Source of the DNA: Candidatus Eiseniibacteriota bacterium | GTDB lineage: Bacteria > Eisenbacteria > RBG-16-71-46 > DASYSL01 | Direction of reading: 5' to 3' | Assembly: GCA_046598045.1 (NCBI GenBank) | Contig: JBKJJJ010000162.1 | Coordinates: 17 to 64,016, forward strand | Length of the DNA: 64,000 bases | In this document: positions 29,799 to 54,768 of the stretch, one piece after another | How positions within the stretch are numbered: the first letter of the stretch is position 1 | Layout: every line of letters starts with the position of its first letter | The notes under the pieces: generated by a model | The model's database searches: none | Seen by the model: only the letters and a program-made list of their open reading frames with translations | Told to the model about the DNA's origin: nothing | Translations under genes and position numbers: made by a program

Positions 29799-29897
29799 CC
29801 GGTGCGATCGGCGCTCGCCCCCGACGCCCCGCCCCGCCCGCCGCGCCCGCCCCGCCCGCCGCGCGAGCAGCGCCAGCCGAAAACAGGACGCAGCCTC
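29799..29897. repeat. Duplicated segment (copy of 31899..31969, with internal 21-bp tandem duplication of CCGCCGCGCCCGCCCCGCC)
   Basis: ~70 nt shared string ...CGACGCCCCGCCCCGC...CGCGCGAGCAGCGCCAGCCGAA[AA/GG]CAGGACGC[A/G]GCCTC...; second copy lies inside 3' coding part of 31794..32780. Confidence 0.7.
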
Positions 29898-29951
29898 ACG
29901 GTGTGGAGCGGCGTCGGCCCGCGGGGCGGGTGGGTGGCGCCCTGGAACTGG

Positions 29952-30557: not shown

Positions 30558-30567
30558 CGCTTCTGGC

Positions 30568-31793: not shown

Positions 31794-32780
31794 TTATCGG
31801 TAGCCGGCCGCCAGCTCGCCGGCGATCGCCTCGAGGGCGAGGGCGCGGCGCTCGGCCTCGGCCGGGCCGCTCGGGAGCGCCGGGACCCACTCGAGGTTGC
31901 GCTCGCCCTCGACGCCCCGCCCCGCGCGCCGCGCGAGCAGCGCCAGCCGAAGGCAGGACGCGGCCTCCCAGGTCGCCACATGGCGCGGGGTGGCGAGCCC
32001 GCCGGCCAGGCGGTACGCCTCGAGCACCGCCGTCCCGTCGAAGCTCCCGCTCCCGTTCCTCAGCGCGCGCAGCCGCTCGTGGGCGAGCAGGTTCCCGAGG
32101 TCGAGCCCGATCGGCGCCAGCGCGGCCTCGTCCCAATCGATCCATCCCACCGGCGCGGCGGCCTCGGCCGGCGCCTCGGCGGGAGGCGCGATCACCTGTT
32201 CCTCGTTGAGATCGCGGTGGGCCGGCGCCGATCCAAGGGCATGCTCACTCTCGGCGAGCCGGGCGAAGAGCGCGGGCGTGAACGGCGGCAAGGCGCACGC
32301 GAGTTCCTCCGCGAGGTTCGTGAGCCCCTCGGCTTCGTGGTCAGCGGTCCACTCCCGGGACGGCCAGAGGGCACGCGCGGTGTCGGAACGTTCGAGCGCG
32401 GCCAGCGCGGCCACGCTCCTCGCCAGTTCGCTGGCGCGCCGGGGGCCTTCCGGGAGCGCGGAGAGCGCGGCGCCCGGAAACGCGCCCAGGACCAGGCGGC
32501 CCTCCGCGGCGCACGAATCAACCAGCGGCGGGACGCGCGGAAGGCGGGGCGCGTCGGGGCCACCCTGGGCGAGCGCCGCGGCCAGCGCCTGGTAGTGCGC
32601 GATCAGGCGCGCGGCGCGCTCGGGGCGGACGGTCTTGACGAACCAGCCCTCCTCCACCTCGCGCCGCCCGTCCACCAGGCGGGTTCGCCCGAGGAACATC
32701 GCCTCGCGGCGCCCGGGCCGGCGCTTGATCACGTGCTGCTCGAACGGGACGCCGCCCCGGTCCAGCGTGGGAAGGTTCAC
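31794..32780 (-). CDS. Phosphotransferase-family (APH/choline-kinase-like) protein
   Basis: ~328 aa; 'HRDLNEEQV' catalytic-loop-like and 'IDWDEAALAPIGLDLGNLL' motif; GTG start overlapping stop of upstream ABC gene (GTGA). Confidence 0.55.
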   Translation of the reverse strand: MNLPTLDRGGVPFEQHVIKRRPGRREAMFLGRTRLVDGRREVEEGWFVKTVRPERAARLIAHYQALAAALAQGGPDAPRLPRVPPLVDSCAAEGRLVLGAFPGAALSALPEGPRRASELARSVAALAALERSDTARALWPSREWTADHEAEGLTNLAEELACALPPFTPALFARLAESEHALGSAPAHRDLNEEQVIAPPAEAPAEAAAPVGWIDWDEAALAPIGLDLGNLLAHERLRALRNGSGSFDGTAVLEAYRLAGGLATPRHVATWEAASCLRLALLARRAGRGVEGERNLEWVPALPSGPAEAERRALALEAIAGELAAGYR

Positions 32781-34552
32781 GAGGCGCTCTCGGTCGTCCA
32801 CGCCCGCGCCTCCCAGAGCGCGCGGTACGGCTCCGACGTCGCGAGCAGCGTCTCGTGCCGGCCCTCGGCGACGACCTTTCCGCGCTCGAGCACGAGGATT
32901 CGGTCGGCTCCGGTGACGGTCTCCAGCCGGTGTGCGATCGTCAGGCAGGTGCGGCCCTTCGCCAGGCGGGCGAGTGCCTCGTGCAGGGCGCGGTCGGTCG
33001 TCGGGTCGAGCCCCGTCGAGGGCTCATCGAGCAACAGGATGGGCGCATCCCGGAGGAACGCGCGCGCGATCGCAAGGCGCTGCCGCTGGCCGCCCGAAAG
33101 CGTTGCGCCCCGTTCGCCGACCACCGTCTCGAGCCCGCGCGGCAGGGCGCGGACGAACTCATCGGCCTGCGCCTCGGCGAGCGCGTTCCACAAGGCCGCC
33201 TCGCTCGCCGCCGGATTGCCGACGAGCAGGTTCTCGCGAATCGTGGCGCCGAACAGCGCGGCCTCCTGCAGCACGAGCGCGATCTGCGCGCGCACGCTCT
33301 CGATGGTGAACGCCCGCGCGTCGCTGCCGTCGAGGCGGACCAATCCGCTCTCGGGATCGAAGAAGCGGCCGACCAGCCCGAACAGCGTGGTCTTGCCGGC
33401 GCCGGTGCGGCCGACCACCGCCACGTGCTCGCCCGGTCCGATCCGGAAGGACACGTGATCGAGCGCCGGCCGGTTCGGCTCGTAGCCGAACGACACGTCC
33501 TCGAACTCGATGCGCCCGAGCAGCCGGGGTGCCGGCACCGCGCCCGGGCGATCGGCCACCCCGGGCTCGGTGTCGAAGAGATCCTGCACCCGGCGCGCGC
33601 ACGCACTCGCCTTGGCATAGCGCTGCGCGGACTGCGCGAGATCGCGCATCGGCTTTTGCAGGCTGCGCACGTAGGACAGGAACACGACCAGGTCGCCCGC
33701 CGAGAGCGCACCGGCCCGCACGCGCATGACGCCCAGGTAGAGGACGAGCCCCGCCCCAAGGGCGGTCACGATCTCGACCGCGCGCGCCAGCAGCGCCTCG
33801 GCCCGGTTCGAGCGCAGCCCCGCCTCGAGGAAGCCCTCGCCCTCCATCTGCAGGCGTCCCGCAGCCAGGTCCTCGGCGCCGAACGCCTGGACGACCTGGA
33901 TCAGCTGGAGGCTTTCCCCCGCGACCGCGGAGAGCCGCCCCTCGCGCCGCCGCTGCGCGCGCGTGGCCTCGCGGATCGAGCGCACGTGGCGCAGCACGAC
34001 CAGCGCGAGGGCCGGCAGGAACACCAGCGCGGCGACGGTCAGCAGGGGGTCGAGCAGGGCGAGCACGACCACCATGCCGAGCACGAACGCGCCCCGCGCG
34101 ACGATCTGTCCCGACTGCGTGATCAGGAAGTCGCTCAGGACATTGAGGTCGCCGACCAGGTGGACGAGCAGCTCGCCCGAATGCCGTCTGCGGTGAAACG
34201 CGAGCGAGAGCCGCTCGAGATGGCGGAACAGGCGCAGCCGCAGCTCGAGGATCGCCTGCTGACCGGCGCGGGCGAGCACGATCGCCTGGACGTAGGCGAG
34301 CGCCCCGCCGACCGCGGCCACCAGCACGAAGCCGAGCGCGATCGCGAGCATCGCCTGGGACTCCGGCCAGTGCGCGAGGAACGCGAACGGCCCGAGGCGC
34401 GGGGGGTGTCCGTGCGGCGGCACCAGGAAGAGGTCGATCGCGAGCTTGAGCGGCCAGGGCTTGAACAGCTCGACCAGGCCTGCGCCGAGCAACGCCAGCG
34501 CGCTGGTCGCGAGCGCGCCGCGGTGCCGCCCCACGACGGGGCGGAACAGCAT
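32777..34552 (-). CDS. ABC transporter, fused permease/ATPase (MsbA/lipid-exporter type)
   Basis: 591 aa from internal ATG; 6-TM region then Walker A 'GRTGAGKTT', signature 'LSGGQRQRLAIARA', Walker B 'ILLLDEPSTGLD'. Confidence 0.85.
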   Translation of the reverse strand: MLFRPVVGRHRGALATSALALLGAGLVELFKPWPLKLAIDLFLVPPHGHPPRLGPFAFLAHWPESQAMLAIALGFVLVAAVGGALAYVQAIVLARAGQQAILELRLRLFRHLERLSLAFHRRRHSGELLVHLVGDLNVLSDFLITQSGQIVARGAFVLGMVVVLALLDPLLTVAALVFLPALALVVLRHVRSIREATRAQRRREGRLSAVAGESLQLIQVVQAFGAEDLAAGRLQMEGEGFLEAGLRSNRAEALLARAVEIVTALGAGLVLYLGVMRVRAGALSAGDLVVFLSYVRSLQKPMRDLAQSAQRYAKASACARRVQDLFDTEPGVADRPGAVPAPRLLGRIEFEDVSFGYEPNRPALDHVSFRIGPGEHVAVVGRTGAGKTTLFGLVGRFFDPESGLVRLDGSDARAFTIESVRAQIALVLQEAALFGATIRENLLVGNPAASEAALWNALAEAQADEFVRALPRGLETVVGERGATLSGGQRQRLAIARAFLRDAPILLLDEPSTGLDPTTDRALHEALARLAKGRTCLTIAHRLETVTGADRILVLERGKVVAEGRHETLLATSEPYRALWEARAWTTESAS

Positions 34553-34602
34553 TGCGAGTGCGCGATCCTCCCCGCGATCCGCGCCGTGCGGCTTGCCGCC
34601 AC

Positions 34603-35754
34603 TCAACACCGCTCTCCCGGCAGCGCGCGGGGCCGCGCGACCCAGCCCAGGATCGCGCGCGCCACCCCGCTCCAATCGAACTCCCGGCGCGCCCGCTGCC
34701 GCGCGGCCGCGCCCAGGCGTTCCCGCAGCGCGGGATCTTCCGCCAGCTGCACGAGCCCGTCCGCCAGGCCCGCGGCGTCGCCCGGCGACACCAGGAACGC
34801 GTCCTCGCCGTGCACGAAGCGCGCCGCCACCTGGCCGGCGCGCGGCGCGAGGATCGCGCACCCCGCGGCCGCGTACTCGTAGATCTTGAGCGGCGAGAAG
34901 TAGTAGTCGAGTGCATCGGGTGCGGCCACGATCGCGATGTCGACGTGGCGCAGGAACTCCGCCACCTCGGCGTGCGTCCGCGCGCCCTCGAATCGCACGT
35001 GCGGAGACAGTCCGCGCGCCGTGACATCGCCTTCGAGGCCTGCCCGCAGCGGACCGTCGCCCACGAGTTCGAGCTCGACGTTCGCGCCCCGACCCCTCGC
35101 CTGCGCGAGCGCCTCGACCACGAGTTCGAGGCCATGCCACGGCCTGAACGTCCCGACGAAACCCCCGCGCACAGGCCCTGCGGGATCGGCGGCGATGCGC
35201 GGCCGGTCGAACGCCGCGACGTCGACGCCGTTCGGCAGGACGCGCACGCGCGCGGGATCGGCGCCGCGCCGGATCGCGTAGTCCGAGAGCGCGTCGGAGA
35301 CGACATAGACGATCTCCGCGGCGGCGAGCAGCCGCGCCTGGCGCGCGGTCGTTTCCGCCGTGAGCTCGCGCCCGCGGAATCGTCGCGCTTCCTCATCGAG
35401 CGGCGAGTTGATCTCGACGATCAGGGGAACGCCGAGGCGGCGCGCCAGCTCGAGGCCGGCCTCGCTGTCGAGCGCGAGCCGCTCCAGCACCGCGTCGGGC
35501 GCCGGGCCGCGCGCGGCGGCGGAGAGCGCCGCCGTGAGCACGCGCGCGGGCAGGTCGCCGGGCCCGGTCACCGGCACCGCGTGCACTTCGACGCCGGGAA
35601 GCTCAGGGATCGCTCCCGGCCCGCAGGGCGCGACGCCGGTGACCTGCGCCTGCGCGCGCGCGAGCGCGCGCCAGAGCTCCGTGACGTGAATCGTGGCGCC
35701 CTTGACGGCATCCAGCCGAACGCCGGGATCCGCGCACAGCGCGAGGATTTTCAC
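34603..35754 (-). CDS. Glycosyltransferase family 4 (GT-B)
   Basis: GT4 C-terminal 'EGFGL'-type region (LKIYEYAAAGCAILAP) and N-terminal 'VKILALCADPG'; start set at GTG overlapping upstream stop, ATG at 35784 also possible. Confidence 0.75.
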   Translation of the reverse strand: MKILALCADPGVRLDAVKGATIHVTELWRALARAQAQVTGVAPCGPGAIPELPGVEVHAVPVTGPGDLPARVLTAALSAAARGPAPDAVLERLALDSEAGLELARRLGVPLIVEINSPLDEEARRFRGRELTAETTARQARLLAAAEIVYVVSDALSDYAIRRGADPARVRVLPNGVDVAAFDRPRIAADPAGPVRGGFVGTFRPWHGLELVVEALAQARGRGANVELELVGDGPLRAGLEGDVTARGLSPHVRFEGARTHAEVAEFLRHVDIAIVAAPDALDYYFSPLKIYEYAAAGCAILAPRAGQVAARFVHGEDAFLVSPGDAAGLADGLVQLAEDPALRERLGAAARQRARREFDWSGVARAILGWVARPRALPGERC

Positions 35755-36971
35755 GCGGCTCCCGCGAACCATGCGGCCAGGCACTCGACGTTGGTCGCGA
35801 GATCGAAGCGCTCCTCCGCACGCTGACGCGCGGCGAAACTCATGCGCGCGAGCGTCTCCGGGTCCCCCAACAGGTCGCCCAGCGCCCTGGCGAGCGCAAC
35901 CGCATCGCCGGGCTCGACCAATCGTCCCTCGATTCCGTCGCGAACGATTTCCGGATTGCCGGTGACCGGGGTCGTGACGCAGGGCACGCCCGATGCCAGG
36001 GCCTCGAGCAGGACGGTCGGCAGGCCGTCGCGATTCCCGTCGGCGGCCACGCGGCAGGGCAGGCAGAACACGGCAGCCTCCGCCATCAGTGCGCGCACGC
36101 GATCCTGGGATTGCGGACCCTCGAAGGTGACGGAGTCCGCGATGCCTTGATCGCGGGCGAGCGCGCGCAGGCGTGCGTCCTCCGGCCCGTCCCCCACCAG
36201 CACCAGCCGGGCGCGCGGGATCCGGACGCGCACCGCGGGCCAGGCCCTGAGCAGGTCGTCGAAGCCCTTCTTCTCGACCAGGCGTCCGACCGCGAGCACG
36301 ACGGGGTCGCGGGTTTCGATCGAAGCCCCCGCGGGCCGAAACTCGCGCAGGTCGACACCGTTGTAGAGCCGGCGCAGGTTGCCGTTCGCACCCGGGCCGT
36401 AGAGCTGCGCGAGGTAGGCCCGGTTGAAGTCACTCACCGTCACCACGAAGCTCGCCGCGCGCATCTTGTCGCGCAGGAGGTCGAGGTCGGTGCTGTCCTG
36501 GTAGATGTCCTTGGCATGCGCGGTGAACGAGAACGGCGTGCCCGTCAGCTGCGACGCGAACATGGCAACGCGCGAGGGCGCGCTCGCGAAGTGTGCGTGC
36601 ACGTGCTGCACGGGGTGCGCCGCCAGGTCCCGCGCCATCGTCGCCGCCTGGAAGTAACGCTTCCACGCCTGGTGCGTGCCGCGCGAGGCCACGTAGGAAA
36701 GCAGCGGAAACCCCCGTACTGCGTCCTGCCCGAGATAGGGAAGGATCGCGCCGACGCCCCGTGAGAGCCAGTGGATCGGGCGTTCGGGCAGGTACACCAC
36801 GCGCGCGCGCAGGCGCGCGAGCGCCGGATGGGTCGGGCTCGAGGCCAGCGGATGCTTGAGCGAGTAGACCGTGAGCGTGTGCCCGCGACTCTCGAGCTCG
36901 AGCAACTCGTTCAGGATGAAGGTCTCGGAGAACCGGGGGAACATCTTGACGACGTACGCGAGGGCACTCAT
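35751..36971 (-). CDS. Glycosyltransferase family 4 (GT-B)
   Basis: 406 aa from internal ATG (MSALAYVVKMFPRFSETF...); 'VGRLVEKKGFDDLLRAW...LVLVGDGPE...LPCRVAADGNRDGLPTVLLEALASGVPCV'; ATGA overlap with upstream gene. Confidence 0.8.
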   Translation of the reverse strand: MSALAYVVKMFPRFSETFILNELLELESRGHTLTVYSLKHPLASSPTHPALARLRARVVYLPERPIHWLSRGVGAILPYLGQDAVRGFPLLSYVASRGTHQAWKRYFQAATMARDLAAHPVQHVHAHFASAPSRVAMFASQLTGTPFSFTAHAKDIYQDSTDLDLLRDKMRAASFVVTVSDFNRAYLAQLYGPGANGNLRRLYNGVDLREFRPAGASIETRDPVVLAVGRLVEKKGFDDLLRAWPAVRVRIPRARLVLVGDGPEDARLRALARDQGIADSVTFEGPQSQDRVRALMAEAAVFCLPCRVAADGNRDGLPTVLLEALASGVPCVTTPVTGNPEIVRDGIEGRLVEPGDAVALARALGDLLGDPETLARMSFAARQRAEERFDLATNVECLAAWFAGAA

Positions 36972-38188
36972 CCGACGCGGGCCTCCATCCGCACGCCGCG
37001 CTCGGCCAGGAGATCGCGAATCTCGAGGCTGACCTGCGCCGCGCCGTCCGTGCCGAACGGCAGGTCGTCGCTGCGCGGGCCGAGTTCGAGCGCGAGCGCG
37101 ATCTCGGCGGCGAGCCGCTCCGGCGTGGCGTGGTCGGGATGTACGACCCGGCACAGGCCGCGCTCGGCCATGGCCTGGGCGCGAATCCACTGCTCGAGCC
37201 GCGGGGTCACCCGCGGCACGACGACGGCAGGCACGCGCGCCGACAGGATCTCGGTCATCGAGTTGTATCCCGCCATCGAAACCACCACGTCGGCGGCGTG
37301 GACCAGCCGCGGCAGGTCCGGCTCGAAGTCGATGACGTGCACGCGCTCGAGGCCGGCAGCGCGGTCCTTGAACGACTGCGCCTGGACGGCCGACATCAGC
37401 GGCCCGGTCACCGCCAGCAGGGTCGCATCCGGGGGCACGGGGGCCGCCCAGGCATCGAGCAAGGCCCCGATCACCCGCTCCCCGTCGCCGCCGCCGCCGA
37501 TGGTCGCGACCACGAGGCGTTCGCCCGGATCGATCGCGTGGTGGAGCCGCAGGTCCGAAGCCGCGGCGCACGGTTCGGACCACAGCACGTACTGCGTGAA
37601 GCGCACGCGCCCGTTGAGGCGCGGCGACAGGCCGTATTCCTCGGGCGAGGGGCCGACGCCGGGCGCGCCGTAGACCAGCACGCGGTCATAGGTGCGGTCC
37701 ATCCAGTCGAGCAGGCCGTCCCGCTCCCAATCCAGGCGCACGCGCACGGGATCGTCGATCACGTCGCGCAGGCCGAGCACCAGGCCGGCGGCGGGCTGCG
37801 CCTGGCGCAGGTGATCGAGCGGAACGCGCAGCTCGCCCGACATCCCGGCCGGTGCGTGGTCGACGATCAGGACGTCGGGCCGGAACGAGGACAGCGTCTG
37901 GTCGATCAGGCGCGAGCGGAAGTCCGCGACCTCGGCGAGCGACATGTCCAGCGAGCGCGCGCGGTAGGCGCCGTCCTCCGACTTGGTCACCGAGGGCACC
38001 TTGACGAAGTCGAAGCGCGGCGGCAGGGCAAACGCGTGCGCCTGGGGGGAGCCGGTCAGCGCCAGCAAATGCGCGTCGGGAAAGTCGCGCGCGAGCCGGT
38101 GAGCCAGCGTCAGGTTGCGGCGCAGGTGGCCCAGACCGAAGGTGTCGTGTCCGTAGAGCGCGATCCGAGGTCCGCGTCGCACGGTCAC
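36968..38188 (-). CDS. Glycosyltransferase, GT-B fold (GT28/MGT-like)
   Basis: 406 aa in 3' part of ORF 36968..39151; 'RIALYGHDTFGLGHLRR' N-terminal Gly-rich motif, C-terminal 'VVSMAGYNSMTEILSARVPAVVVPR' donor-binding-like region; GTG start overlapping upstream stop. Confidence 0.6.
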   Translation of the reverse strand: MTVRRGPRIALYGHDTFGLGHLRRNLTLAHRLARDFPDAHLLALTGSPQAHAFALPPRFDFVKVPSVTKSEDGAYRARSLDMSLAEVADFRSRLIDQTLSSFRPDVLIVDHAPAGMSGELRVPLDHLRQAQPAAGLVLGLRDVIDDPVRVRLDWERDGLLDWMDRTYDRVLVYGAPGVGPSPEEYGLSPRLNGRVRFTQYVLWSEPCAAASDLRLHHAIDPGERLVVATIGGGGDGERVIGALLDAWAAPVPPDATLLAVTGPLMSAVQAQSFKDRAAGLERVHVIDFEPDLPRLVHAADVVVSMAGYNSMTEILSARVPAVVVPRVTPRLEQWIRAQAMAERGLCRVVHPDHATPERLAAEIALALELGPRSDDLPFGTDGAAQVSLEIRDLLAERGVRMEARVG

Positions 38189-38868
38189 TCCAGCACCAGC
38201 ACACGAACACGGCTGGCGGCCTGCACGCCGGCGGGGAGCCGCAGCTTGACGCGCCAGGCATAGCGGCCGGCAGGCACCGGGGCGCCAACATAGGAGCCCT
38301 GGTTGCCGAGGCCGTTCCACCCCGCCTGGGACTGCGTCCCCTGGGGCGAGGCCCACGCCAGGACGCCCAGCGAGTCGTCCACGCGCGCACTCGACCAGAG
38401 ATAGGTGCCCTGGTATGCGCTCCACTGGAAAGTCAGCGCGCTCGAGAACGTGGGGCGCGCCTGGACCGTCGAATCGGCCGGCGCCACGAGATCGAAACCG
38501 CGCGCATCGACGTCGAACGGCGGAATCGCCACGGACTGGCCGGCGGTCGTGATGTCGAAGAAGAAGCGGACGTAACCCAGGTCCGAGGCCAACGTCGGCG
38601 AGACCTTGACCAGCCAGTGCCCCGGCCCGACGCCGGCGAATCCATACGCGCCCGCGCCGTCGGTCAGGGTCGAGTCGACCTGCGACTGTTCGAGATCGTC
38701 GTAGAGCTTGACCTTCATCCCGGGGACCGCCACGCCCGCGCGCACGACGGTGCCGCTCACGGTCTCGGGCGGCGACGGCCCGGCGACCTCGCGCGACGCG
38801 CCGCAACCGGCGAGCACGACCGCCAGGACGAGTGCGCCGGTCGCGCGGCCGCGATCGTTCAGCGTCAC
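38185..38868 (-). CDS. Lipoprotein with carboxypeptidase-regulatory-like (CarbopepD_reg) domain (cassette copy 1)
   Basis: 227 aa from GTG overlapping PQQ gene stop; lipobox-like 'LVLAVVLAGC'; 'GTVVRAGVAVPGMKVKLYDD...TDGAGAYGF'; 228-aa paralog at 47239..47925. Confidence 0.6.
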   Translation of the reverse strand: MTLNDRGRATGALVLAVVLAGCGASREVAGPSPPETVSGTVVRAGVAVPGMKVKLYDDLEQSQVDSTLTDGAGAYGFAGVGPGHWLVKVSPTLASDLGYVRFFFDITTAGQSVAIPPFDVDARGFDLVAPADSTVQARPTFSSALTFQWSAYQGTYLWSSARVDDSLGVLAWASPQGTQSQAGWNGLGNQGSYVGAPVPAGRYAWRVKLRLPAGVQAASRVRVLVLE

Positions 38869-40298
38869 GGCAGCACCACCAGGGCGCGGGCCACGCTCGC
38901 GCCGTCGGCGGACAGCCGCACCCGGTAGACGCCGGGAGCGACGCGCTGCCCGCGTCCATCCTCGAGATCCCACGACGCGGACTGTTCCGCGCCGGTGGCG
39001 TCGCCCTGCCACAACCACGCGACGATGCGGCCGCGCACGTCGAACACTTCAAGGCTCGCCGGGGCGCCGGCCGGAGCGCGGAAGGAGACGGAAGCACGCG
39101 TGCGCGCCGGCTGCGGGAACGGCGCGGCAAGCGCGACCCGCGCGGCCGCACCCGGCGCGCGCCCCACGCCGACCAGCGGCGGGCCGAGCGCGAACAGCTT
39201 GCCGTTCTTGGCGCCGAAGAACACCGCGCCGTCGGCCGCGATCGCGGCCGAGGAACGCACGGCCGCTCCGGCAGCGAACTTCCAGCGCAGGCTCCCCCCC
39301 GCGTTCAGGCAATAGAACGTCGAGTCATCCGACCCGAAGTAGACCGTGCCGTCGGCGGCGACGACCGGCGACGAGCGAATCACGTTACGCGCATAATAGC
39401 GCCACAGCACCGCGCCGTTCGCCGGCGCGAGCGCGGCCACGTGGGAGCCGGTCGCGACCACGATCGAGCCGTCGGCGCGGATCGCCGGCGTGGTGTCGAC
39501 GTTCGCGGTGTCGCTGAAGACCCACTTCAGGGCCCCCGTCGGCCGCAGGGCATAGAGGAAGCGGTCCTCGCTCCCCTGGTAGATCGTCGAATCCTCGGCC
39601 ACGGCCGGAGACGCCAGGTCGATGATGGCGCCGGTGGTCCCGAACCAGAGCTGCGTCCCCGCCGGCGTGATCGCGTAGATGCGCGCGTCGTAGGACCCGA
39701 CATAGATGTCCCCGAGCGGTCCGAGCGCGGGCGAGGAGCGCACGTTGCCTCCCGTGGGGAACGACCACACCGGGGCGCCGGCCGCGGTGAAGCGGTACAG
39801 CAGGTTGTCGCCATTGCCGGCCAGGACGTCCCCCGAGGGGAGGATCAGCGGCGAGGACCGGAACGTGCTCCCGCCGCGAAATTTCCAGCGCAGGGTGCCG
39901 CTCACGTTGACCGCGTAGAGCGTTGAATCCATCGAACCGACGTAGATCGTCCCATCGGCGGCCACCGCGGGGCTCGAGAACCGGATCGGCCCGTTGGTGG
40001 CGAACGCCCAGTGCAGCACACCGTCGGGCTGCACGGCATAGAGCTTTCCGTCGTCGCAGCCCACGTACACGGTCCCGTCCGCGCCGAGCGCGGGTGAAGA
40101 GCGGTCGATCGAGTCCGCCGCCTGGAAGATCCAGCGCAACTGCGGGGATGCCAGCCCCGGGGCGCTCGAGCGGCCCCGGTGCGCGGCACCGCCGTGAAAC
40201 ATCGGCCAGGGCGAGGGCGCGAGCTGCGCCTTCGACGGGGAGGCCGCCGCACTGAGCAGCAGGGTCAGCAGGACAATGGAGTTCCATCGGGATCGCAT
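38865..40298 (-). CDS. Secreted PQQ-like beta-propeller repeat protein with T9SS-type C-terminal domain (cassette copy 1)
   Basis: 477 aa from internal ATG (signal MRSRWNSIVLLTLLLSAAASPSKAQ); repeated 'DGT.Y.GS.D..LYA' PQQ/BamB-like units; C-terminus '...LEVFDVRGRIVAWLWQG...APGVYRVRLSADGASVARALVVLP'; paralog of 47922..49370. Confidence 0.75.
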   Translation of the reverse strand: MRSRWNSIVLLTLLLSAAASPSKAQLAPSPWPMFHGGAAHRGRSSAPGLASPQLRWIFQAADSIDRSSPALGADGTVYVGCDDGKLYAVQPDGVLHWAFATNGPIRFSSPAVAADGTIYVGSMDSTLYAVNVSGTLRWKFRGGSTFRSSPLILPSGDVLAGNGDNLLYRFTAAGAPVWSFPTGGNVRSSPALGPLGDIYVGSYDARIYAITPAGTQLWFGTTGAIIDLASPAVAEDSTIYQGSEDRFLYALRPTGALKWVFSDTANVDTTPAIRADGSIVVATGSHVAALAPANGAVLWRYYARNVIRSSPVVAADGTVYFGSDDSTFYCLNAGGSLRWKFAAGAAVRSSAAIAADGAVFFGAKNGKLFALGPPLVGVGRAPGAAARVALAAPFPQPARTRASVSFRAPAGAPASLEVFDVRGRIVAWLWQGDATGAEQSASWDLEDGRGQRVAPGVYRVRLSADGASVARALVVLP

Positions 40299-40305
40299 GT
40301 GCGCC

Positions 40306-41241
40306 TCAGCGGGTTGCAGTGATCGCGAGTCCGATTTCGCGGACGGAATAGTCCTTGGAGCTGCGCGTCGAGGTCCGCCGGCGCCCGGCGCCGCGGACCT
40401 CCGCCCGCACGGGGCCGGCGAGGGCGTGGCCGATCGCGAATTCGCCCCGCCAGCGGTCGTCTTCGCGCCCGAAGTTGGACGCAAAGGGGCGGCCGGTCCG
40501 GTAATCCCGCAGCGCGAATTCGCCGAGGGCGCGCACCGAGATCTCCGCGACGGGTACGAACTCGCCTTCGAGGCGCACCGCATTTTGCGCGTAGGTGTAG
40601 AGGTCGGTCACGGAGTTCGCGTGCCGATAGACGTAGGACAGCGCGAGCCGCTTGCCCGGGTCGAAGCGGCGCTCGACCACGGAACGAAGGGTGGTTCTCC
40701 GGTCGTCGCGCTCGTTGGCGATCGGTATGAAATCCTCGTGGTCGCGGGTGAAGACGAACTGCGCCATCCATCCCGGGGCGGGCTCGTACCGGCCCTCGAA
40801 ACCCCAGTGGTCGCGATCGAGGCGGACATCGCCCCCGCTCCTGGGAAAGTACAGCTCGTCGCGCGTGAATCCGCCGAAGCCCCGCAGGCGAACCGGGCCG
40901 CGCCGCACGTCGAGGCCGAACTCCCAGCGGTCCAGGTTGCGTGCGCTCCAGGTGTCGTAGCGCTCTGCCGTCCAGCTCACCCAGGGCTTGACGCGCAGGC
41001 CGTGGGCCAGGCGGAACGTGACCTCGGGCTTGAGGACGAGACGCAGCCCGTTGTCCGATTCGAGCTCGGGCCCACCCGGGAACAGGTCGGTGGTGTGGAA
41101 GCCCGCGAGGGCGAGATCTCCGCCCCATGTCACCGCAGCCGCCGAAGCCGCCCTGGCCTGCGCAGGAAACATGGCTCCGCCCAAAAGGATGGAAACCCCG
41201 AGAATCAATGCAAGATGCGATCCGGGCAGGCGCAAGGCGAC
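40306..41241 (-). CDS. Putative outer-membrane beta-barrel protein (cassette copy 1)
   Basis: Alternating hydrophobic pattern, many Y/W/R; paralog of 49388..50335; start uncertain (GTG at 41241 gives signal-like LRLPGSHLALILGVSILLGGAMFPAQARA). Confidence 0.5.
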   Translation of the reverse strand, partial: VALRLPGSHLALILGVSILLGGAMFPAQARAASAAAVTWGGDLALAGFHTTDLFPGGPELESDNGLRLVLKPEVTFRLAHGLRVKPWVSWTAERYDTWSARNLDRWEFGLDVRRGPVRLRGFGGFTRDELYFPRSGGDVRLDRDHWGFEGRYEPAPGWMAQFVFTRDHEDFIPIANERDDRRTTLRSVVERRFDPGKRLALSYVYRHANSVTDLYTYAQNAVRLEGEFVPVAEISVRALGEFALRDYRTGRPFASNFGREDDRWRGEFAIGHALAGPVRAEVRGAGRRRTSTRSSKDYSVREIGLAITATR

Positions 41242-41308: not shown

Positions 41309-41527
41309 TCATGGCCACGTGGGGTTTTTTCGAATGGCGGGGTCGGACCCGGGGGAGTCGCCGGAAATCTCGGGCCGGAGAGCGGCCGCCAGGTCGAGGA
41401 TGCCCGCACCATCGTCCCGCGTGGCCTCCGGGACCGACGGGTCGATCGGCGCCGTGGTCAGGGACAGGCGCTCCAGTACTTGCGACGGCGACCAGTCCGG
41501 GTGCAGCGCGAGCCGCGCAAACACCGG
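41309..41527 (-). pseudogene. Remnant of subtilisin (S8) C-terminus, diverged copy of 3' end of 50517..51854
   Basis: '...LALHPDWSPSQVLERLSLTTAPIDPSVPEATRDDGAGILDLAAAL...' aligns with '...AAHPDWSRTKVLARMQQTATPIEPTVPGATTLFGAGILNLGAAL...'; no upstream catalytic domain. Confidence 0.45.
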
Positions 41528-41864
41528 AATGCGGCGATCCGTCGAGACCGATCCCCTCATGAATTTCCTCCTCGATGGGCGCGTTGCTCGGCCTTTGAGG
41601 TTACCACGGATTCGCCCGCCAGACGCGTCGGGCGATCCCTGATCCCGGAGCGCACCTCGAGCCGGTCGCCCGCGTCTCCCAACCATGTCCACGCGCCCGC
41701 GTTCCAGCGTTCGAAGGTCCTGCGCAGGCAGCGGTTGCGCGCGGACGCCAGGGCCTGACGGAGCGTTGCACCCTGCACGAGCCCTCCTGGAGAGAGCCCG
41801 GCCGTGGATCCAAGATGACAGCAGGACGCCCTGTCGGCTGCCGGTCCCGGATGGCGGCGGCACG

Positions 41865-43685
41865 TCAGAGGATCGGCACGCTGGCGGCGGTCTGCATCGC
41901 GCACAGGCGCGCGTACTTGCCGTTGCGCGCGAGGAGCGCGTCGTGACCGCCCTGTTCCACGATCCGGCCGTGCTCGAGGACCACGATGCGATCGGCGAAT
42001 CGAACGGTGGCGAGGCGATGGGCGATGATCAGCGTCGTCCGCCCGGCTGCGGCGCGTTCGAGCGCGTCGATGACGATCCGTTCCGAGGCGACATCGAGCC
42101 CGCTCGTCGGTTCGTCGAGGATGACGATCGGGGCATCGCGAAGGACGGCCCGGGCGATCGCGATGCGCTGCTTCTGTCCGCCCGAGAGGCTGGCACCGCG
42201 CTCGGCCACCGGCGACTGGTACCCGTTCGGCATCCGGGTGATGAATTCCTCGGCGTTCGCCATCCGGGCCGCGGATGCGATTTCCTCGGCGCTGGCGGTC
42301 GGGCGACCGAACGCGATGTTCTCACCGACGGTGCCGCTGAACAGGAGGGCGTCCTGGAGCACGAGGCTGATCTGATCGCGAAGCGACTGCAGTTCCAGGT
42401 CGCGGACATCCTCGCCGTCCAGGTGGACACTGCCCTCCGTCGCGTCGAAGAATCTGGGGATCAGTCCGACGAGCGTGCTCTTGCCCGCCCCGGTGGCGCC
42501 GACGATGGCAACGCGTTCCCCCGGCGCGATGTCGAGGTCGAGTGAGGTCAGTACGGGTTGTCCCGGCGCGTAAGCGAAGGACACGTTTCGGAATTCGATC
42601 CGACCCTTGAGGCGGGACACACGACGCGCGCCCGGTCGGCTCGCGACCTCCGTCCGTACCTGGAACACGTCCTGGATGCGCTCGAGCGCAATTGCCGCGC
42701 GGCTCACCGAGGTGGAGAGGCGCGCAAGCGCCTTCATCGGCGCGTAGAAGTTCGTCACATAGGCGAAAAAGACGATCAGGTCCCCGGTGGTCAGCTCGTT
42801 CGCGAGCACCCGCGTGGCGCCGTTCCACATCACGATCACCAGCCCGATGGCGGCGAGCACATCCACCAGCGGTGCGACTCGCGCCTGGTAGCGCACGCCC
42901 TCGAGATACGCGCGCAGGCTGTTCTCGCCCTGGAGTTGAAACCGCTCGTCCTGTTGCTGCTCCTGGGCGAGGCCTTGCACGATGCGGATCGCGACGAAGG
43001 TCTCCTGCGCGACGGACGCCAGCACGCCGTCGCTCATGCGCGCCGCGCGCGCAGCGATCTTGATCCGCCGCGTGTAGCGCACGACGATCCAGAACAGGAT
43101 CGGCGCCACGGACAGGGACGCCAACGCGAACTGCCAGTTGAGCCAGAACATGAGCCCCAGCATGGCGACCAGGAGGCAGGCGTTGCTCAGGAGCAGGATG
43201 GAGCCGTTGGCGACGAGGTCCTGGAGTGCACTGACGTCGCCCGTCAGGCGGGACATCAGGTCGCCGGTCCGCTGCTGGTCGTGGTAGCGAAGCGAGAGCC
43301 GCTGGATGTGGGCGAACAGCCGGCAGCGCAACTGGAACGCGAAACGCTGGGCGACGACGCCCACCGACCGCGTGAAGGCGTAGGTCAGGAGGCCCGTGAT
43401 GACCGCGATGAACAATGTGGTCGCGCAGGCGCCGAACAGGACACGCATGGGATCGTGGGCCGACTGGTTGACCCACTCCCCGATGAACGGGACGCGCGTG
43501 TGCCTGTGCGAAAGCACGGTGTCGATCACGACCTTGAGAGGCCACGGGCGCAGGGCGGTGAGCAGCGCATCGAGGATCATGGCGAGCGCGGCCCAAAGCA
43601 GCGGCGTTCGAAATGGCCGGAGGAGCGGAAGAAAGTGCGCGGACCAGCTGTCGGACGACTTGTCCCCGGGCGCTCGTTCAGCCAT
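41865..43685 (-). CDS. ABC transporter, fused permease/ATPase (MsbA-like exporter)
   Basis: 606 aa from internal ATG; TM region then Walker A 'GATGAGKST', 'LSGGQKQRIAIARA', 'IVILDEPTSGLD'. Confidence 0.85.
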   Translation of the reverse strand: MAERAPGDKSSDSWSAHFLPLLRPFRTPLLWAALAMILDALLTALRPWPLKVVIDTVLSHRHTRVPFIGEWVNQSAHDPMRVLFGACATTLFIAVITGLLTYAFTRSVGVVAQRFAFQLRCRLFAHIQRLSLRYHDQQRTGDLMSRLTGDVSALQDLVANGSILLLSNACLLVAMLGLMFWLNWQFALASLSVAPILFWIVVRYTRRIKIAARAARMSDGVLASVAQETFVAIRIVQGLAQEQQQDERFQLQGENSLRAYLEGVRYQARVAPLVDVLAAIGLVIVMWNGATRVLANELTTGDLIVFFAYVTNFYAPMKALARLSTSVSRAAIALERIQDVFQVRTEVASRPGARRVSRLKGRIEFRNVSFAYAPGQPVLTSLDLDIAPGERVAIVGATGAGKSTLVGLIPRFFDATEGSVHLDGEDVRDLELQSLRDQISLVLQDALLFSGTVGENIAFGRPTASAEEIASAARMANAEEFITRMPNGYQSPVAERGASLSGGQKQRIAIARAVLRDAPIVILDEPTSGLDVASERIVIDALERAAAGRTTLIIAHRLATVRFADRIVVLEHGRIVEQGGHDALLARNGKYARLCAMQTAASVPIL

Positions 43686-44826
43686 GCAAGCCGTCCCCGT
43701 GCCCGTCGCGAGTCCCGGGAGACGGAAGTTCCAGGGTGCCGCCCAGGTCGTCGATGTGGAGGAGGTCGTGCAGGCCCGACCTGTCGGCCAGGCGCGTGAG
43801 CAACCGCGCCGACGCGGCGCCTCGCAGGAGCTTCGGCTGATAGTGGGCGCGCAGGTCACGGTTCTTCACGTAGGTCGGATAGAGATGAAGCACGGTGCGG
43901 CGTTCTTCGAATCGAATCCCAAGCAGCATCGACTCGGCACGGCTGTTCGCGGAGCCGAACGCGAAGTTTCCGAGGCTGTAGATGATGGGACGGCCGCGAT
44001 GCAGTTCGATCGGCTGGATCACGTGGGAATGGTGGCCGATCACGGCGTCCGCCCCGCAGTCGATCGCGAAGCGGGCCTTGGCGCGATCCTCGGCGGTCGG
44101 CTCGGCCTCGTACGGCAATCCCCAATGCACGGTGACGACGATCCGATCGGCGCGACCGCGCAGCGCCCGAATGTCCCGGACGAGATCATCCGGCGTGTCC
44201 ATCGCGCTCCCCGGCCGGGTTGACGTCGCCGCGGTCCGGCGATTCCAGTAGTAGCCGAGCAGGCCGATGCGATATGGCCCCGCCTCGAGGATGACCGGCG
44301 CGTGCGCCGCAAGCTCGTTCTCCCCGCCCCCAATGGCAAGCACGCCGGCGGTCGCCAACGCTTCGAGCGTCTCGAGCACACCCTCCACACCGCAATCGAG
44401 CAGGTGATTGTTCGCCAGGTTCACGACGTTGATTCCCGCCCGCTTGAGCGTGGATGCCGTCCGCGGATGGACCCGGTAGGAAAAGTGGCGATCCTGCTTC
44501 TCCGCGTATTTCGCGAGCGGCCCCTCGAGGTTTGCGAGCACGATCGGCGCCTGGCGGAGCAGCGGGGCCACCCCCTCGAACGGGTACTCCGGCCCATACT
44601 TTTCGATCGCCTTCCGGGCCCGTCCGCCGAGCATGACGTCGCCGCCGGCAAGGAGTGAGAGTCCCAGCGGTTCCGCACTGGCCAGGTACGCCTCGAGCGC
44701 CGGCCCCGAGACCAGGTCCTCGTCCGCCGGAATCTCCTCCGGGTGCACGTGATTCAGCATGACCTGGTGGGCCGCCAGGATCGCCCGGCGGGAAGTCGTC
44801 GGCAGGCGTCCGGCCTCATCCTTCAT
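43678..44826 (-). CDS. CapA/PGA_cap-family metallophosphatase (poly-gamma-glutamate synthesis/capsule family)
   Basis: 382 aa from internal ATG; 'GDVMLGG...NLEGPL...NVVNLANNH...GHHSH...SLGNFAF' CapA blocks. Confidence 0.7.
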   Translation of the reverse strand: MKDEAGRLPTTSRRAILAAHQVMLNHVHPEEIPADEDLVSGPALEAYLASAEPLGLSLLAGGDVMLGGRARKAIEKYGPEYPFEGVAPLLRQAPIVLANLEGPLAKYAEKQDRHFSYRVHPRTASTLKRAGINVVNLANNHLLDCGVEGVLETLEALATAGVLAIGGGENELAAHAPVILEAGPYRIGLLGYYWNRRTAATSTRPGSAMDTPDDLVRDIRALRGRADRIVVTVHWGLPYEAEPTAEDRAKARFAIDCGADAVIGHHSHVIQPIELHRGRPIIYSLGNFAFGSANSRAESMLLGIRFEERRTVLHLYPTYVKNRDLRAHYQPKLLRGAASARLLTRLADRSGLHDLLHIDDLGGTLELPSPGTRDGHGDGLHG

Positions 44827-44857
44827 GGGTTCGCGCACGAGGGCGACCTCCCGAAAT

Positions 44858-46096
44858 TCAAAGCGCCGCCATGCCACGCGCGGCGAAGACCTGTGCGATG
44901 AGAGCGCCATGACGCCCGGATTGGAGGAGCTGGTCGGCGGAGAGCAGCGCCGACAGGCCCGTCTCGAACCCGTCTCGCGCCCGGCAGGTGCCTGCCACGG
45001 TCGCCGGGCTCGCTTTCCCGCTCCGCCGACCCAACTCGAGAAGCATGCCGAGGACGAGTCGATCAGTGATGCGGGAGCCGCACGCCGGGTCCGCGGTGAT
45101 CCGTGTCCGCAGGTCCCAGAGCGCGGCGCCCCAGATCGTGCCATTCGCGTGCGGGTCCGCGCGGGGACCCGGGTCGAAGTCCGCCATCGTCCGCGGCGAG
45201 ACCAGGCTTCGGGCGTGAGGCGGCCGCCCGTCATGGCCATGGTGCCAGGCCCAGATGTGCGGCACGCCGAGCATCGTGGCCGCCCAGTAATCGCTCGTCC
45301 CTTCGTCCAGCGCGGTCTTGCGATTGTCCTGGCGATCGGGACGCCGCAGGGAATTGGCCCGAAGATCGGCCGTGTGACGCGCGATGTGATGTCCGTACTC
45401 GTGGTAGAGAATGCCGGCGTTATGCGACGCATTGGCCCGGTACTTCTCGCCGACGGCCCTCACGATCGCCCCCGCCTCGAGTAACTGCCGGCCGGGCCCG
45501 AGATGAATCTCGCCCTGGGTCGAGAGCGGCACGGGTTCGGGAATGTCGTACCTGCGAGCGGGCAGGCGGTAGTGCCCGCCCTGAAACGCCAGCCATCGCT
45601 CCCCGCGCCGGACTCCGTTGCGCTTGCCGGCACAGTCGGTCGCCGCGTGATGCGCATTGACGACGGCGACCACACGGGGAAGAGACGGCGCGCCGAGTTC
45701 GTGGAGCAGCTCGTCCACGTAGGAGGCGACGCGATCGAGGTGATGGTAGGTGTTGGTTTCGCCGAAGTGGGATGCACCCACGTAGCGCTCCCGCCAGTGC
45801 GCTTTGGCGCTCGAGTGCGTGTCCATCCGTCCCCCGCCGCGGCCCGGTTCGAACAGGAAGTCCCCCGCCTCATTGGGCCTCGCGTTTCCGATGGCGAGCG
45901 CTTCCGGCTCCCCCCGGTCGGTTCCCAGCCCGGGGAGCTCGCCCCCGTTGCGCACCTCGACGAAGCGGCCGACGAGGCGCGGGACGCCGTCCGCCTGGGG
46001 TTCGAGCCGCAGAAGCGGTTCGACTCCAAGGACGACGCTGCCGCTCGACGCCTCTGCGCCATCGGGCCGCCAGAGGTAGACCCGGCCGCGGCTCAT
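44858..46096 (-). CDS. Zinc metallopeptidase, thermolysin-like/gluzincin (HEYGHH ... EGTSDYW)
   Basis: 412 aa from internal ATG overlapping upstream stop (ATGA); 'ILYHEYGHHIARH' then 'ALDEGTSDYWAATM'; no obvious signal peptide. Confidence 0.55.
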   Translation of the reverse strand: MSRGRVYLWRPDGAEASSGSVVLGVEPLLRLEPQADGVPRLVGRFVEVRNGGELPGLGTDRGEPEALAIGNARPNEAGDFLFEPGRGGGRMDTHSSAKAHWRERYVGASHFGETNTYHHLDRVASYVDELLHELGAPSLPRVVAVVNAHHAATDCAGKRNGVRRGERWLAFQGGHYRLPARRYDIPEPVPLSTQGEIHLGPGRQLLEAGAIVRAVGEKYRANASHNAGILYHEYGHHIARHTADLRANSLRRPDRQDNRKTALDEGTSDYWAATMLGVPHIWAWHHGHDGRPPHARSLVSPRTMADFDPGPRADPHANGTIWGAALWDLRTRITADPACGSRITDRLVLGMLLELGRRSGKASPATVAGTCRARDGFETGLSALLSADQLLQSGRHGALIAQVFAARGMAAL

Positions 46097-51854: not shown

Positions 51855-51886
51855 GACTCCGCTCCGGGGTGTGGGATCGATTCCGT

Positions 51887-54739: not shown

Positions 54740-54768
54740 GGCATGCGGATCGCGGGAGCGGGGCGGAC

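Follow-up and report, generated by a model that had tools for sequence, protein, structure and literature searches.

Six minus-strand open reading frames in the window (the whole 64-kb stretch of DNA analyzed) form two collinear triads, in each of which the gene for an outer-membrane (OM) β-barrel is followed by the gene for a PQQ-type β-propeller and then by that for a lipoprotein. Operon 1 reads barrel-PQQ-Lipo-GT28-GT4-GT4-ABC-APH and operon 2 reads barrel-PQQ-Lipo-X-Y-CapA-ABC. Their features and immediate surroundings are as follows.

41309..41560, minus: 83-codon ORF, remnant of an S8 protease C-terminus; strong Shine-Dalgarno sequence; upstream edge of the duplicated segment
40306..41235, minus: OMP1, copy 1 barrel; signal peptide, then a predicted 14-strand OM barrel from a rare, TPR-less family resembling DUF560; homologous to the modeled OMP2
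38865..40298, minus: PQQ1, PQQ/BamB-like β-propeller of 477 aa; SPI signal peptide, Gln at +1; FlgD_ig-type sorting-like domain (~90 aa) at the C-terminus
38185..38868, minus: Lipo1, lipoprotein of 227 aa; lipobox LAGC; CarboxypepD_reg sandwich, then a second Ig-like sandwich; start overlaps the PQQ1 stop (GTGA)
36968..38182, minus: GT28_C/MurG-like glycosyltransferase; begins 2 nt past the Lipo1 stop
35751..36971, minus: EpsE-like GT4 glycosyltransferase; ATGA overlap with the GT28 stop
34603..35754, minus: second GT4 glycosyltransferase; resembles the PEP-CTERM-system stp3 family
32777..34609, minus: ABC1, fused TMD-NBD MsbA-like exporter; shares 40% identity with ABC2 and 38% with its counterpart in Acidobacteriota-type loci
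31794..32780, minus: APH-family kinase-like protein; closes operon 1
51887..55510 (ORF bounds), minus: CHAT-TPR protein; upstream of type A operons (see below) here, in L001 and in L005
50517..52001 (ORF bounds, start uncertain), minus: S8 subtilase directly upstream of OMP2; source of the remnant upstream of OMP1
49388..50335, minus: OMP2, copy 2 barrel of 315 aa; 14 strands in the AlphaFold2 model; Pfam SlipAM match above cutoff
47922..49370, minus: PQQ2, PQQ/BamB-like propeller of 482 aa; C-terminal domain as in PQQ1
47239..47925, minus: Lipo2, lipoprotein of 228 aa; start overlaps the PQQ2 stop (GTGA); modeled as two β-sandwich domains
46093..47235, minus: protein X, cytoplasmic; P-loop GSSMDAGKT; weak CbiA match and no other family; kept in all type A loci
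44858..46096, minus: protein Y, cytoplasmic; HExxH motif; weak likeness to M36/fungalysin; overlaps the X stop through ATGA
43678..44838, minus: PGA_cap (CapA) family protein; sub-threshold likeness to the peptide epimerase MslH
41865..43685, minus: ABC2, MsbA/HepA-like fused ABC exporter; closes operon 2

An earlier note on this DNA had described the three genes as a cassette present twice as diverged paralogs, and this is borne out: the genes lie in the same order on the same strand, and BLASTP detects homology in all three pairs, with 41% identity between the barrels (E 9e-71), 60% between the propellers (E 0.0) and 50% between the lipoproteins (E 2e-70). Protein identity hence spans 41-60%, not the ~50-60% first given; the DNA of the two copies is 65% identical over 2060 nt. 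The resemblance between the two triads far exceeds chance. Several finer points needed correction. The lipoprotein start does overlap the propeller stop in both copies, through GTGA in copy 1 as described, but copy 2 also has GTGA, not ATGA. The barrel-to-PQQ spacers, thought to be identical, differ (7 nt vs 17 nt), and the lipoproteins measure 227 aa (copy 1) and 228 aa (copy 2) rather than 228 codons each. Position 41241, taken as the start of OMP1, holds GTC, not a start codon; translation probably begins at an in-frame TTG (41235), giving 309 aa with a good signal peptide. The domain calls agree with ours: the propellers match Beta-prop_ACSF4/PQQ_2 and end in FlgD_ig with a weak Por_Secre_tail match, and the lipoproteins combine CarboxypepD_reg with a lipobox Cys. 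As the note had supposed, the arrangement appears undescribed; we found no account of it in the literature searched.

Start/stop overlaps of 4-8 nt recur along both operons and couple their genes translationally. The two triads had been placed in different operon contexts. Their enzyme sets do differ, but both operons share a common frame of S8 protease or S8 remnant, barrel, PQQ, Lipo, enzymes and a paralogous ABC exporter, the exporters being 40% identical, similar to the 41% between the barrels. The 83-codon ORF upstream of OMP1 is 53% identical over 62 aa to the 3′ end of the S8 protease preceding OMP2, and the duplicated segment therefore extends beyond the limits previously drawn. ABC1 and ABC2 have the fused ABC_membrane + ABC_tran architecture of exporters, score best against MsbA and are each 35-38% identical to the exporter of the type D loci described below. 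The GT4s of operon 1 resemble EpsE and PEP-CTERM-system glycosyltransferases. For operon 2 we rejected a poly-γ-glutamate reading: X has no PgsB/Mur-ligase match, and the CapA-like protein scores best, below threshold, against MslH. PDB sequence searches with X, alone and as a profile, gave no match. The spacer separating the two clusters yielded neither sigma-70 promoters nor terminators; we likewise detected no convincing sigma-54 elements upstream of either barrel, and no Rfam family anywhere in the 64-kb window.

Structure prediction indicates that the putative OM protein is a true barrel. The AlphaFold2 model of OMP2 (pLDDT 79.5, pTM 0.74) has 14 strands behind a signal peptide, the first strand starting ~5 residues past the cleavage site. 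The family is very rare (39 clusters in 1.84 billion), and nearly all of its members are ~300 aa long. SlipAM (PF04575, DUF560) is the top Pfam family for OMP2, at 27.6 bits against a cutoff of 22, and OMP1 has no match. Of 37 family members, 8 match this model; the consensus sequences of the four subgroups all do so too, in one shared register (best E 4e-8), but cover only profile positions ~125-245 of 288. A domain search returned no TPR match in the OMP barrels. By these profile comparisons, the family appears to be remotely DUF560/Slam-like; it is TPR-less and found outside the Proteobacteria. Weak matches also connect it to the exopolysaccharide-associated barrels TIGR03016 (23.2 bits, cutoff 90.85), EpsL (17.6 bits, cutoff 275) and BBP2_2. 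We rejected membership in the FadL/PorV/BamG family because the OMP2 model has no long N-terminal tail or hatch; Pfam and NCBIfam searches gave no FadL-family sequence match and, at E 0.05-0.1 or better, no PorP/SprF match, and we rejected that family as well. PDB sequence searches with the barrel profile and with a SlipAM-annotated relative gave no match, and no solved Slam was found for comparison. The conserved motifs of the barrel sit in predicted extracellular loops. Because their key residues persist in type D barrels, which have neither propeller nor lipoprotein, these motifs are independent of both partners.

The propeller had been taken for a type IX secretion system (T9SS) cargo with a T9SS-like tail. 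Against TIGR04183 the tail scores 21.6 bits in copy 1 and 14.3 bits in copy 2, below the type-A cutoff of 23, and against PF18962 it scores 14.7 bits (cutoff 27); FlgD_ig is a better match than the T9SS models. Searched with an HMM of the PQQ tails, three further window ORFs prove to carry the same domain at their C-termini (E 6e-16 to 4e-11), two of which are Kelch or galactose-oxidase-like. Rather than marking T9SS cargo, the tail is probably a genome-wide FlgD_ig-type C-terminal tag, carried also by these three unrelated window proteins. No T9SS core genes occur among the window proteins scanned, which represent 64 kb of the genome. The propeller is not BamB either: it scores 84 bits against TIGR03300 (cutoff 285) and has an SPI signal peptide with cleavage between A and Q and no lipobox. 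The lipobox of its neighbor reads LAGC (copy 1) or TVGC (copy 2), and its Cys is present in all eight full-length sequences of a 10-sequence alignment, the other two being N-terminally truncated. The N-terminal domain of the lipoprotein is CarboxypepD_reg, and AlphaFold2, confident in only one of five models, predicts two Ig-like sandwiches overall, not the 8-stranded barrel of a Slam cargo. Homology of its C-terminal domain with the PQQ tail was rejected (E 0.8).

The comparative evidence consists of about 20 loci, many on short metagenomic contigs; a broad barrel alignment (A3) was too divergent to search for loci, and the scan of reference genomes gave one locus, in a Candidatus Eisenbacteria MAG. 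The triad recurs in other metagenomic lineages. In L011/L012 the barrel is 28%, the PQQ protein 51% and the lipoprotein 37% identical to copy 1, the whole triad or part of it is present in L001, L003, L005, L010 and L021, and among loci L013-L018, which were anchored on the lipoprotein, all five with upstream sequence have PQQ ahead of it. The three genes can thus be regarded, as proposed, as a conserved envelope module; that they never co-occur elsewhere, the counter-case raised in the earlier note, fails because the triad is found outside this genome. Type A loci (window copy 2, L001, L013) read barrel-PQQ-Lipo-X-Y-CapA-ABC, and the type C locus L011 reads GT28-GT4-barrel-PQQ-Lipo-GT4-ABC. 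In type D (L006, L007, L009) the order is GT28-GT4-GT4-ABC-APH-barrel, with the barrel 13 nt past APH and the same five-gene series that follows the triad in operon 1, and no PQQ or lipoprotein gene lies within 10 kb of these distant barrels, one of which comes from an Acidobacteriota MAG. A SlipAM-annotated relative (L023) ends a locus of GT4, Wzx-type flippase, APH, GTs and sugar-modifying enzymes; in L022 two tail-bearing proteins directly follow the barrel; and P0033 is either a GT28-barrel fusion or a merged gene call.

In the barrel and lipoprotein trees, A and B are sister clades, joined by C and then D, and the ABC tree is compatible with this topology, less robustly. By these trees, the duplication is ancient. 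Since the distant barrels keep GT28-GT4-GT4-ABC-APH without PQQ or lipoprotein, the deepest and most constant association of the barrel is with a biosynthetic operon and its flippase-type transporter rather than with the propeller. The proposal of a T9SS cargo with its own OM partner is not supported: the distant barrels have no PQQ or lipoprotein, the propeller tail lies below the T9SS cutoffs and is a genome-wide tag, and the two operon contexts have one frame in common.

We tentatively favor, at somewhat less than an even chance, that the triad is the outer-membrane end of an undescribed ABC-exporter-dependent export pathway with a swappable enzyme block. This reading starts from the homology, 14-strand fold, synteny and co-divergence described above; which way transport runs, what the products are and what propeller and lipoprotein do are what we infer. 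Cytoplasmic enzymes of the operon would build the product, those of operon 1 (GT28-like, two GT4s, APH-type kinase) a glycoconjugate, probably lipid-linked or a glycolipid, and those of operon 2 (P-loop X, HExxH Y, CapA/MslH-like) a different one, probably peptide or amide based. The fused MsbA-like ABC exporter would carry it across or into the inner membrane, and the 14-strand DUF560-related barrel would handle it at the OM, as a channel or a flippase-like translocon. The lipoprotein and the propeller, which the C-terminal-tag pathway of the organism would deliver, may be accessory or surface-cap subunits of the barrel. Historically, a core of barrel, transporter and GT/APH enzymes would be old and common to Acidobacteriota, the propeller-lipoprotein pair would have joined it in Eisenbacteria-like lineages, and the scaffold (S8, barrel, PQQ, Lipo ... 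ABC) would then have been duplicated and its enzyme block exchanged. In the locus types compared, the barrel always appears inside a biosynthetic operon with a flippase-type transporter, which argues for export, as do the translational coupling, the MsbA-like exporters, the concordant trees and the barrel motifs that are kept where propeller and lipoprotein are absent. Its weak affinities to TIGR03016, EpsL and BBP2_2, together with the EpsE/PEP-CTERM-like GT4s, fit a glycan role, and PF04575 also captures PgaA polysaccharide porins (PMC8406197). On the other side, no periplasm-spanning adaptor, OPX protein or Lpt-like bridge is encoded in the operons; a polymer would find a barrel of 14 strands narrow; the sole curated family within reach of the barrel is SlipAM, whose characterized members move proteins; glycosyltransferases are missing from operon 2; and an exporter of the MsbA type is a generic component. 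The evidence is wholly comparative, and the organisms are uncultured.

The barrel might instead be a T11SS/Slam-like protein translocon, a TPR-less DUF560 relative that surfaces the lipoprotein and perhaps the propeller, with the GT and ABC genes as loosely related neighbors. We consider this unlikely, while acknowledging that SlipAM is the only curated family that the barrel reaches at or above threshold and that all four subgroup consensuses match it in register. The 14-strand fold agrees with that predicted for Slam, and the lipoprotein gene two genes downstream of the barrel in types A to C recalls the roughly half of Slam genes that adjoin lipoprotein genes (PMC5449769); both kinds of barrel plausibly handle lipid-anchored molecules at the OM. 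However, every Slam found by Hooda et al. has an N-terminal TPR domain, and they found no DUF560-only protein (PMC5449769), whereas the barrel here has no such periplasmic domain. Its neighboring lipoprotein is predicted to be two Ig-like sandwiches rather than the 8-stranded barrel common to Slam cargo, no lipoprotein adjoins the barrels of type D and L023, and the Pfam match is weak and partial (the ~125-245 stretch) to a family that takes in PgaA porins as well (PMC8406197). Unlike Slam, which occurs in Proteobacteria, this barrel belongs to Eisenbacteria-like and Acidobacteriota lineages and sits within glycosyltransferase/ABC-exporter operons. It is improbable, in our judgment, that the propeller is a T9SS cargo, the barrel its dedicated OM partner, like PorP/SprF (type-B cargo) or the PorV shuttle, and the lipoprotein an anchor, as the earlier note had it. 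The ~90 aa Ig-like propeller end does weakly match TIGR04183 and the PorU and PorZ C-termini, it behaves as a sorting tag on five window proteins, the barrel gene adjoins that of a tagged protein (two of them in L022), and the organism belongs to the FCB group, in other phyla of which T9SS may occur (PMC11285876). Yet the tail is under the T9SS cutoffs and better fitted by FlgD_ig, and the barrel shows neither an N-terminal tail of the kind defining the FadL/PorV/BamG family (PMC12611786) nor any PorP/SprF or FadL-family sequence match. Moreover, three other tail-bearing window proteins have no barrel of their own, and type D barrels have no tail-bearing neighbor.

T9SS cargo become attached to anionic LPS, and by analogy the operon might make a dedicated glycolipid anchor like Porphyromonas A-LPS, to which the propeller would be covalently attached after tail cleavage, with the barrel as the site where glycolipid and protein meet. 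The recurrence of tail-bearing proteins beside the barrel within glycan and flippase operons and the MsbA-like exporters are in keeping with this idea, which we nonetheless think has a poor chance of being right: it is wholly inferential, operon 2 retains the triad without glycosyltransferases, the loci contain no sortase-like (PorU) gene, and type D has no tail-bearing protein. We think it very improbable that the barrel is a substrate-specific uptake porin of the CymA or OmpG kind, which would play no part in export and share these loci solely for co-regulation. The architecture of the linked ABC proteins is that of exporters, the enzymes encoded beside them are glycosyltransferases of biosynthesis, neither a solute-binding protein nor catabolic enzymes occur in the loci, and structural likeness among 14-strand barrels is generic.

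The export reading that we favor has a more specific form, which we put forward as speculative and doubtful: the TPR-less DUF560 branch would be the OM translocon of an Lpt-independent route for an MsbA-like-flipped, lipid-anchored glycan or glycolipid in FCB-group bacteria and Acidobacteriota, with propeller and lipoprotein as a surface cap, and swapping of the enzyme block would let a second product use the same scaffold. To our knowledge, T11SS barrels have been described in Proteobacteria only, and as protein secretors only; if this form were true, Slam/T11SS-type barrels would not be protein translocons alone. For most bacterial phyla, little has been learned about the passage of non-LPS glycolipids, oligosaccharides and further envelope products through the OM. 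A rare DUF560-related barrel that goes with glycosyltransferase operons and MsbA-like exporters among uncultured Eisenbacteria-like bacteria and Acidobacteriota is a testable candidate for a new OM export route, and the second copy of the scaffold, which carries other enzymes, serves as a natural experiment in export-operon enzyme-block swapping.

Among known systems, the exopolysaccharide barrels (PgaA, BcsC, PelB; EpsL and the TIGR03016 PEP-CTERM-associated OMPs) likewise place an OM barrel inside a glycan-biosynthesis operon, and the GT4s and the weak EpsL, TIGR03016 and BBP2_2 matches point the same way. By contrast, the barrel here has 14 strands to their 16-18, it is accompanied by no TPR scaffold, synthase, Wza/OPX or PCP, the inner-membrane step falls to an MsbA-like ABC exporter, and all sequence matches are far under the family cutoffs. 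The MsbA-Lpt-LptDE pathway also combines cytoplasmic glycosyltransferases, an MsbA-type flippase and an OM barrel with a lipoprotein, a likeness of analogy only: the loci have no Lpt bridge genes, we detected no homology to LptD or LptE, and the LptD barrel has 26 strands to the 14 here. BamG-BamH of the Bacteroidota/FCB BAM complex differs further, in that BamG is a FadL-family protein with a threaded N-tail and part of BAM, with no sequence relationship to the barrel described here, which is operon-linked to transport and biosynthesis genes.

Two collinear triads of an outer-membrane barrel, a PQQ propeller and a lipoprotein, together six ORFs on the minus strand, lie in the window, whose GC content is ~70%:

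Barrel: copy 1 (OMP1), 40306-41235 (-); copy 2 (OMP2), 49388-50335 (-); protein identity 41%, E 9e-71
PQQ propeller: copy 1, 38865-40298 (-); copy 2, 47922-49370 (-); protein identity 60%
Lipoprotein: copy 1, 38185-38868 (-); copy 2, 47239-47925 (-); protein identity 50%, E 2e-70

All six proteins carry signal peptides, and the copies share 65% DNA identity across 2 kb. The three-gene cassette that the earlier note had seen twice in this DNA is real and conserved (collinear triads, 41-60% protein identity), and several of its details need correction: the PQQ/lipoprotein junction reads GTGA in both copies, not GTGA in one and ATGA in the other; the codon at 41241, taken as the OMP1 start, is GTC, and the start is probably the TTG at 41235; the barrel-to-PQQ spacing is 7 nt versus 17 nt rather than equal; and the lipoproteins differ in length by one residue (227 and 228 aa).

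Each triad forms the head of a long operon with translationally coupled genes:

Operon 1 (-): barrel, PQQ, lipoprotein, GT28-like, GT4, GT4, MsbA-like ABC exporter, APH-type kinase
Operon 2 (-): barrel, PQQ, lipoprotein, P-loop protein X, HExxH/M36-like protein Y, CapA/MslH-like protein, MsbA-like ABC exporter
41309-41560 (-): S8-remnant ORF of 83 codons upstream of OMP1, with a strong Shine-Dalgarno sequence, GAGGAGGAAATTCATG

Between the operons, the exporters share 40% identity. Ahead of the operon 2 barrel lie genes for an ECF sigma factor, a CHAT-TPR protein and an S8 protease (50517-52001), and the short ORF ahead of OMP1 is what remains of the C-terminal end of that S8 gene (53% identity over 62 aa to the S8 preceding OMP2, 59% to that of the related locus L005). 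It is still in frame at a DNA divergence of ~35%, and may be either a gene fragment in decay or a small protein that has been kept. The remnant and the paired exporters indicate that both operons share one frame of S8 or its remnant, triad, enzyme block and exporter. The operon 2 enzyme block (41865-47235, -) is kept as a unit, also in L001, L003 and L013; X is a P-loop protein, Y is cytoplasmic and HExxH/M36-like, and the PGA_cap protein has the lasso-peptide epimerase MslH as its best match. Together with the upstream S8 and CHAT proteases, the block hints at a peptide-derived product, for which we identified no precursor gene.

Searches anchored on the barrel and on the lipoprotein recovered ~20 related loci, which fall into four main architectures and several variants:

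Type A (window copy 2, L001, L003, L005, L013): triad, X, Y, CapA, ABC
Type B (window copy 1, L010, L014, L015, L017, L019): triad, GT28, GT4, GT4, ABC, APH
Type C (L011/L012): GT28, GT4, triad, GT4, ABC
Type D (L006-L009): GT28, GT4, GT4, ABC, APH, barrel; propeller and lipoprotein absent within 10 kb
L021: barrel, then PQQ propeller
L022: APH, barrel, then two CarboxypepD_reg proteins with the propeller-type tail
L023: Wzx-type polysaccharide locus, last gene a SlipAM-annotated barrel

The triad thus occurs outside this genome, for example in type C (28%, 51% and 37% identical to copy 1 in barrel, PQQ and lipoprotein, respectively), and the earlier proposal of an envelope module placed in more than one operon context was right. 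The type D barrel subgroup includes one sequence from an Acidobacteriota MAG, and a reference-genome scan gave one match, a Candidatus Eisenbacteria MAG. The lipoprotein family is tiny (9 database matches), and each of the 8 aligned sequences that are full-length has the lipobox cysteine; PQQ lies upstream in 5/5 lipoprotein-anchored loci having upstream sequence. Barrel and lipoprotein trees concur in placing A and B as sister clades, followed by C and then D, which argues that the triad co-diverged as one unit; the ABC tree is compatible with both and less robust. Because the A and B clades each include orthologs from other samples, the duplication is ancient. The glycosyltransferase context looks ancestral, and the propeller and lipoprotein appear to be a later, lineage-restricted addition. 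In L022 (616-4666), a very distant barrel behind APH is followed by two CarboxypepD_reg-rich proteins with overlapping stop and start codons, both ending in a FlgD_ig tail that shares 42% identity with that of PQQ; the locus would be an alternative solution to the barrel-plus-tagged-proteins arrangement.

The AlphaFold2 model of OMP2 (pLDDT 79.5, pTM 0.74) has 14 strands, which makes the protein a predicted beta-barrel. Its first strand begins almost at the mature N-terminus, so that it has none of the N-tail that threads the barrel of the FadL-family proteins BamG and PorV (PMC12611786). OMP1 and OMP2 belong to a very rare family: when 1.84 billion representatives were searched exhaustively with its profile, the search yielded 39 clusters at E <= 1e-3, nearly all with members of ~300 aa. 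The sole curated family that it reaches is Pfam SlipAM/DUF560 (PF04575), matched by OMP2 (27.6 bits, cutoff 22), by 8/37 family members and by all four subgroup consensus sequences in one register (best E-value 4e-8); matches to the exopolysaccharide-associated barrels TIGR03016, EpsL and BBP2_2 are all sub-threshold. Conserved motifs, among them FHTSDLFPG, DFVPxxDERD and NYRTGxxFAxNFxRxD, map to predicted extracellular loops, and their key residues are kept in type D barrels, that is without propeller or lipoprotein.

The genes most constantly found with the barrel encode a flippase-type transporter and biosynthetic enzymes of the cytoplasm. This partnership, and loop residues conserved independently of propeller and lipoprotein, lead us to favor, tentatively and at somewhat less than an even chance, an envelope-spanning export pathway linked to the ABC exporter. 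The enzymes of operon 1 would make a glycoconjugate, probably lipid-linked, and those of operon 2 another product, possibly peptide based; the exporter would carry it over the inner membrane, the presumed direction of transport, and the barrel would handle it at the outer membrane, with propeller and lipoprotein as putative accessory or surface subunits. That the barrel is an uptake porin is the least probable reading that we considered. That the barrel is instead a T11SS-like translocon moving the lipoprotein is unlikely, although the strand count fits and DUF560 is matched, if borderline. Slam/T11SS proteins combine DUF560 with an N-terminal TPR domain, have a proteobacterial range and move cargo with an 8-stranded barrel (PMC5449769), and Hooda et al. 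found no DUF560-only Slam (PMC5449769), whereas the barrel here lacks a TPR domain and the lipoprotein is not an 8-stranded barrel like the cargo. PF04575 also picks up some PgaA exopolysaccharide porins (Grossman et al., PMC8406197), so the DUF560 match fits protein and glycan export alike.

The propeller, a PQQ_2/BamB-like repeat protein scoring far under the cutoffs for both BamB and the quinoprotein equivalog, ends in a ~90 aa domain matching FlgD_ig. The tail HMM also matches the extreme C-terminus of three further, unrelated ORFs of the window, all large secreted proteins (two Kelch or galactose-oxidase-like, one without known domains), giving five tagged proteins with both propellers:

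13880-17791 (-), 17806-19992 (+) and 20176-22671 (+): FlgD_ig-type C-terminal domain as in the propellers

The tail therefore behaves like a genome-wide sorting tag rather than a cassette-specific one, and suggests a C-terminal-tag sorting pathway heavily used in this organism. T9SS may exist in further FCB phyla (PMC11285876), and the earlier note had read the propeller as a T9SS cargo that has a dedicated outer-membrane partner. We consider this improbable: the tails score 21.6 and 14.3 bits against T9SS type-A, under the cutoff of 23, they are not cassette-specific, and type D barrels lack a propeller. Equally improbable is a glycolipid anchor made to serve the tail-bearing proteins. We see the module rather as the outer-membrane component of a modular export operon that is linked to an ABC exporter and has a rare DUF560-like barrel at its core. 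In the literature we found no paper tying DUF560 to glycosyltransferase/ABC loci or Eisenbacteria to T9SS and, as the earlier note had supposed, no description of the triad arrangement.

Glutamine is the first residue past the predicted cleavage site in 3/3 propellers (A|QLA, A|QLA, A|QPA; window 38865-40298 and 47922-49370, L011 3537-4973), recalling the "Bacteroidetes Q-rule", named in the title of a paper that PMC11285876 cites. Barrel C-termini also differ: the type D consensus ends in a canonical aromatic beta-signal (...VVFVF) and the Eisenbacteria-type alignment in ...SATR(K), which may reflect different BAM recognition rules between lineages. P0033, a 790 aa barrel-family protein from the representative search, has Glyco_tran_28_C at 225-368 followed by the barrel-family domain at 560-747; it is either a topologically odd GT28-barrel fusion or a merged gene call, and in both cases its domain order places a GT28 gene and a barrel side by side. 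Elsewhere, type A operons have Ser/Thr kinase-TPR genes upstream (L001, L003), joined in L003 by a sigma-54 activator; we found no sigma-54 promoter motif. Signaling genes are dense in the window (2196-5357, +; 61833-63998, -; 51887-56165, -): one fusion joins a Ser/Thr kinase to STAND NTPase and TPR, another joins a kinase to PD40 propeller repeats, and a CHAT-TPR gene is accompanied by an ECF sigma factor gene. Operon 1 is followed immediately downstream (29088-31500, -) by a gene for an NHL-repeat propeller protein (30568-31500) and by a 235 aa ORF (29088-29795, -) with weak matches to CarboxypepD_reg and CHU_C, the T9SS type-B tail.
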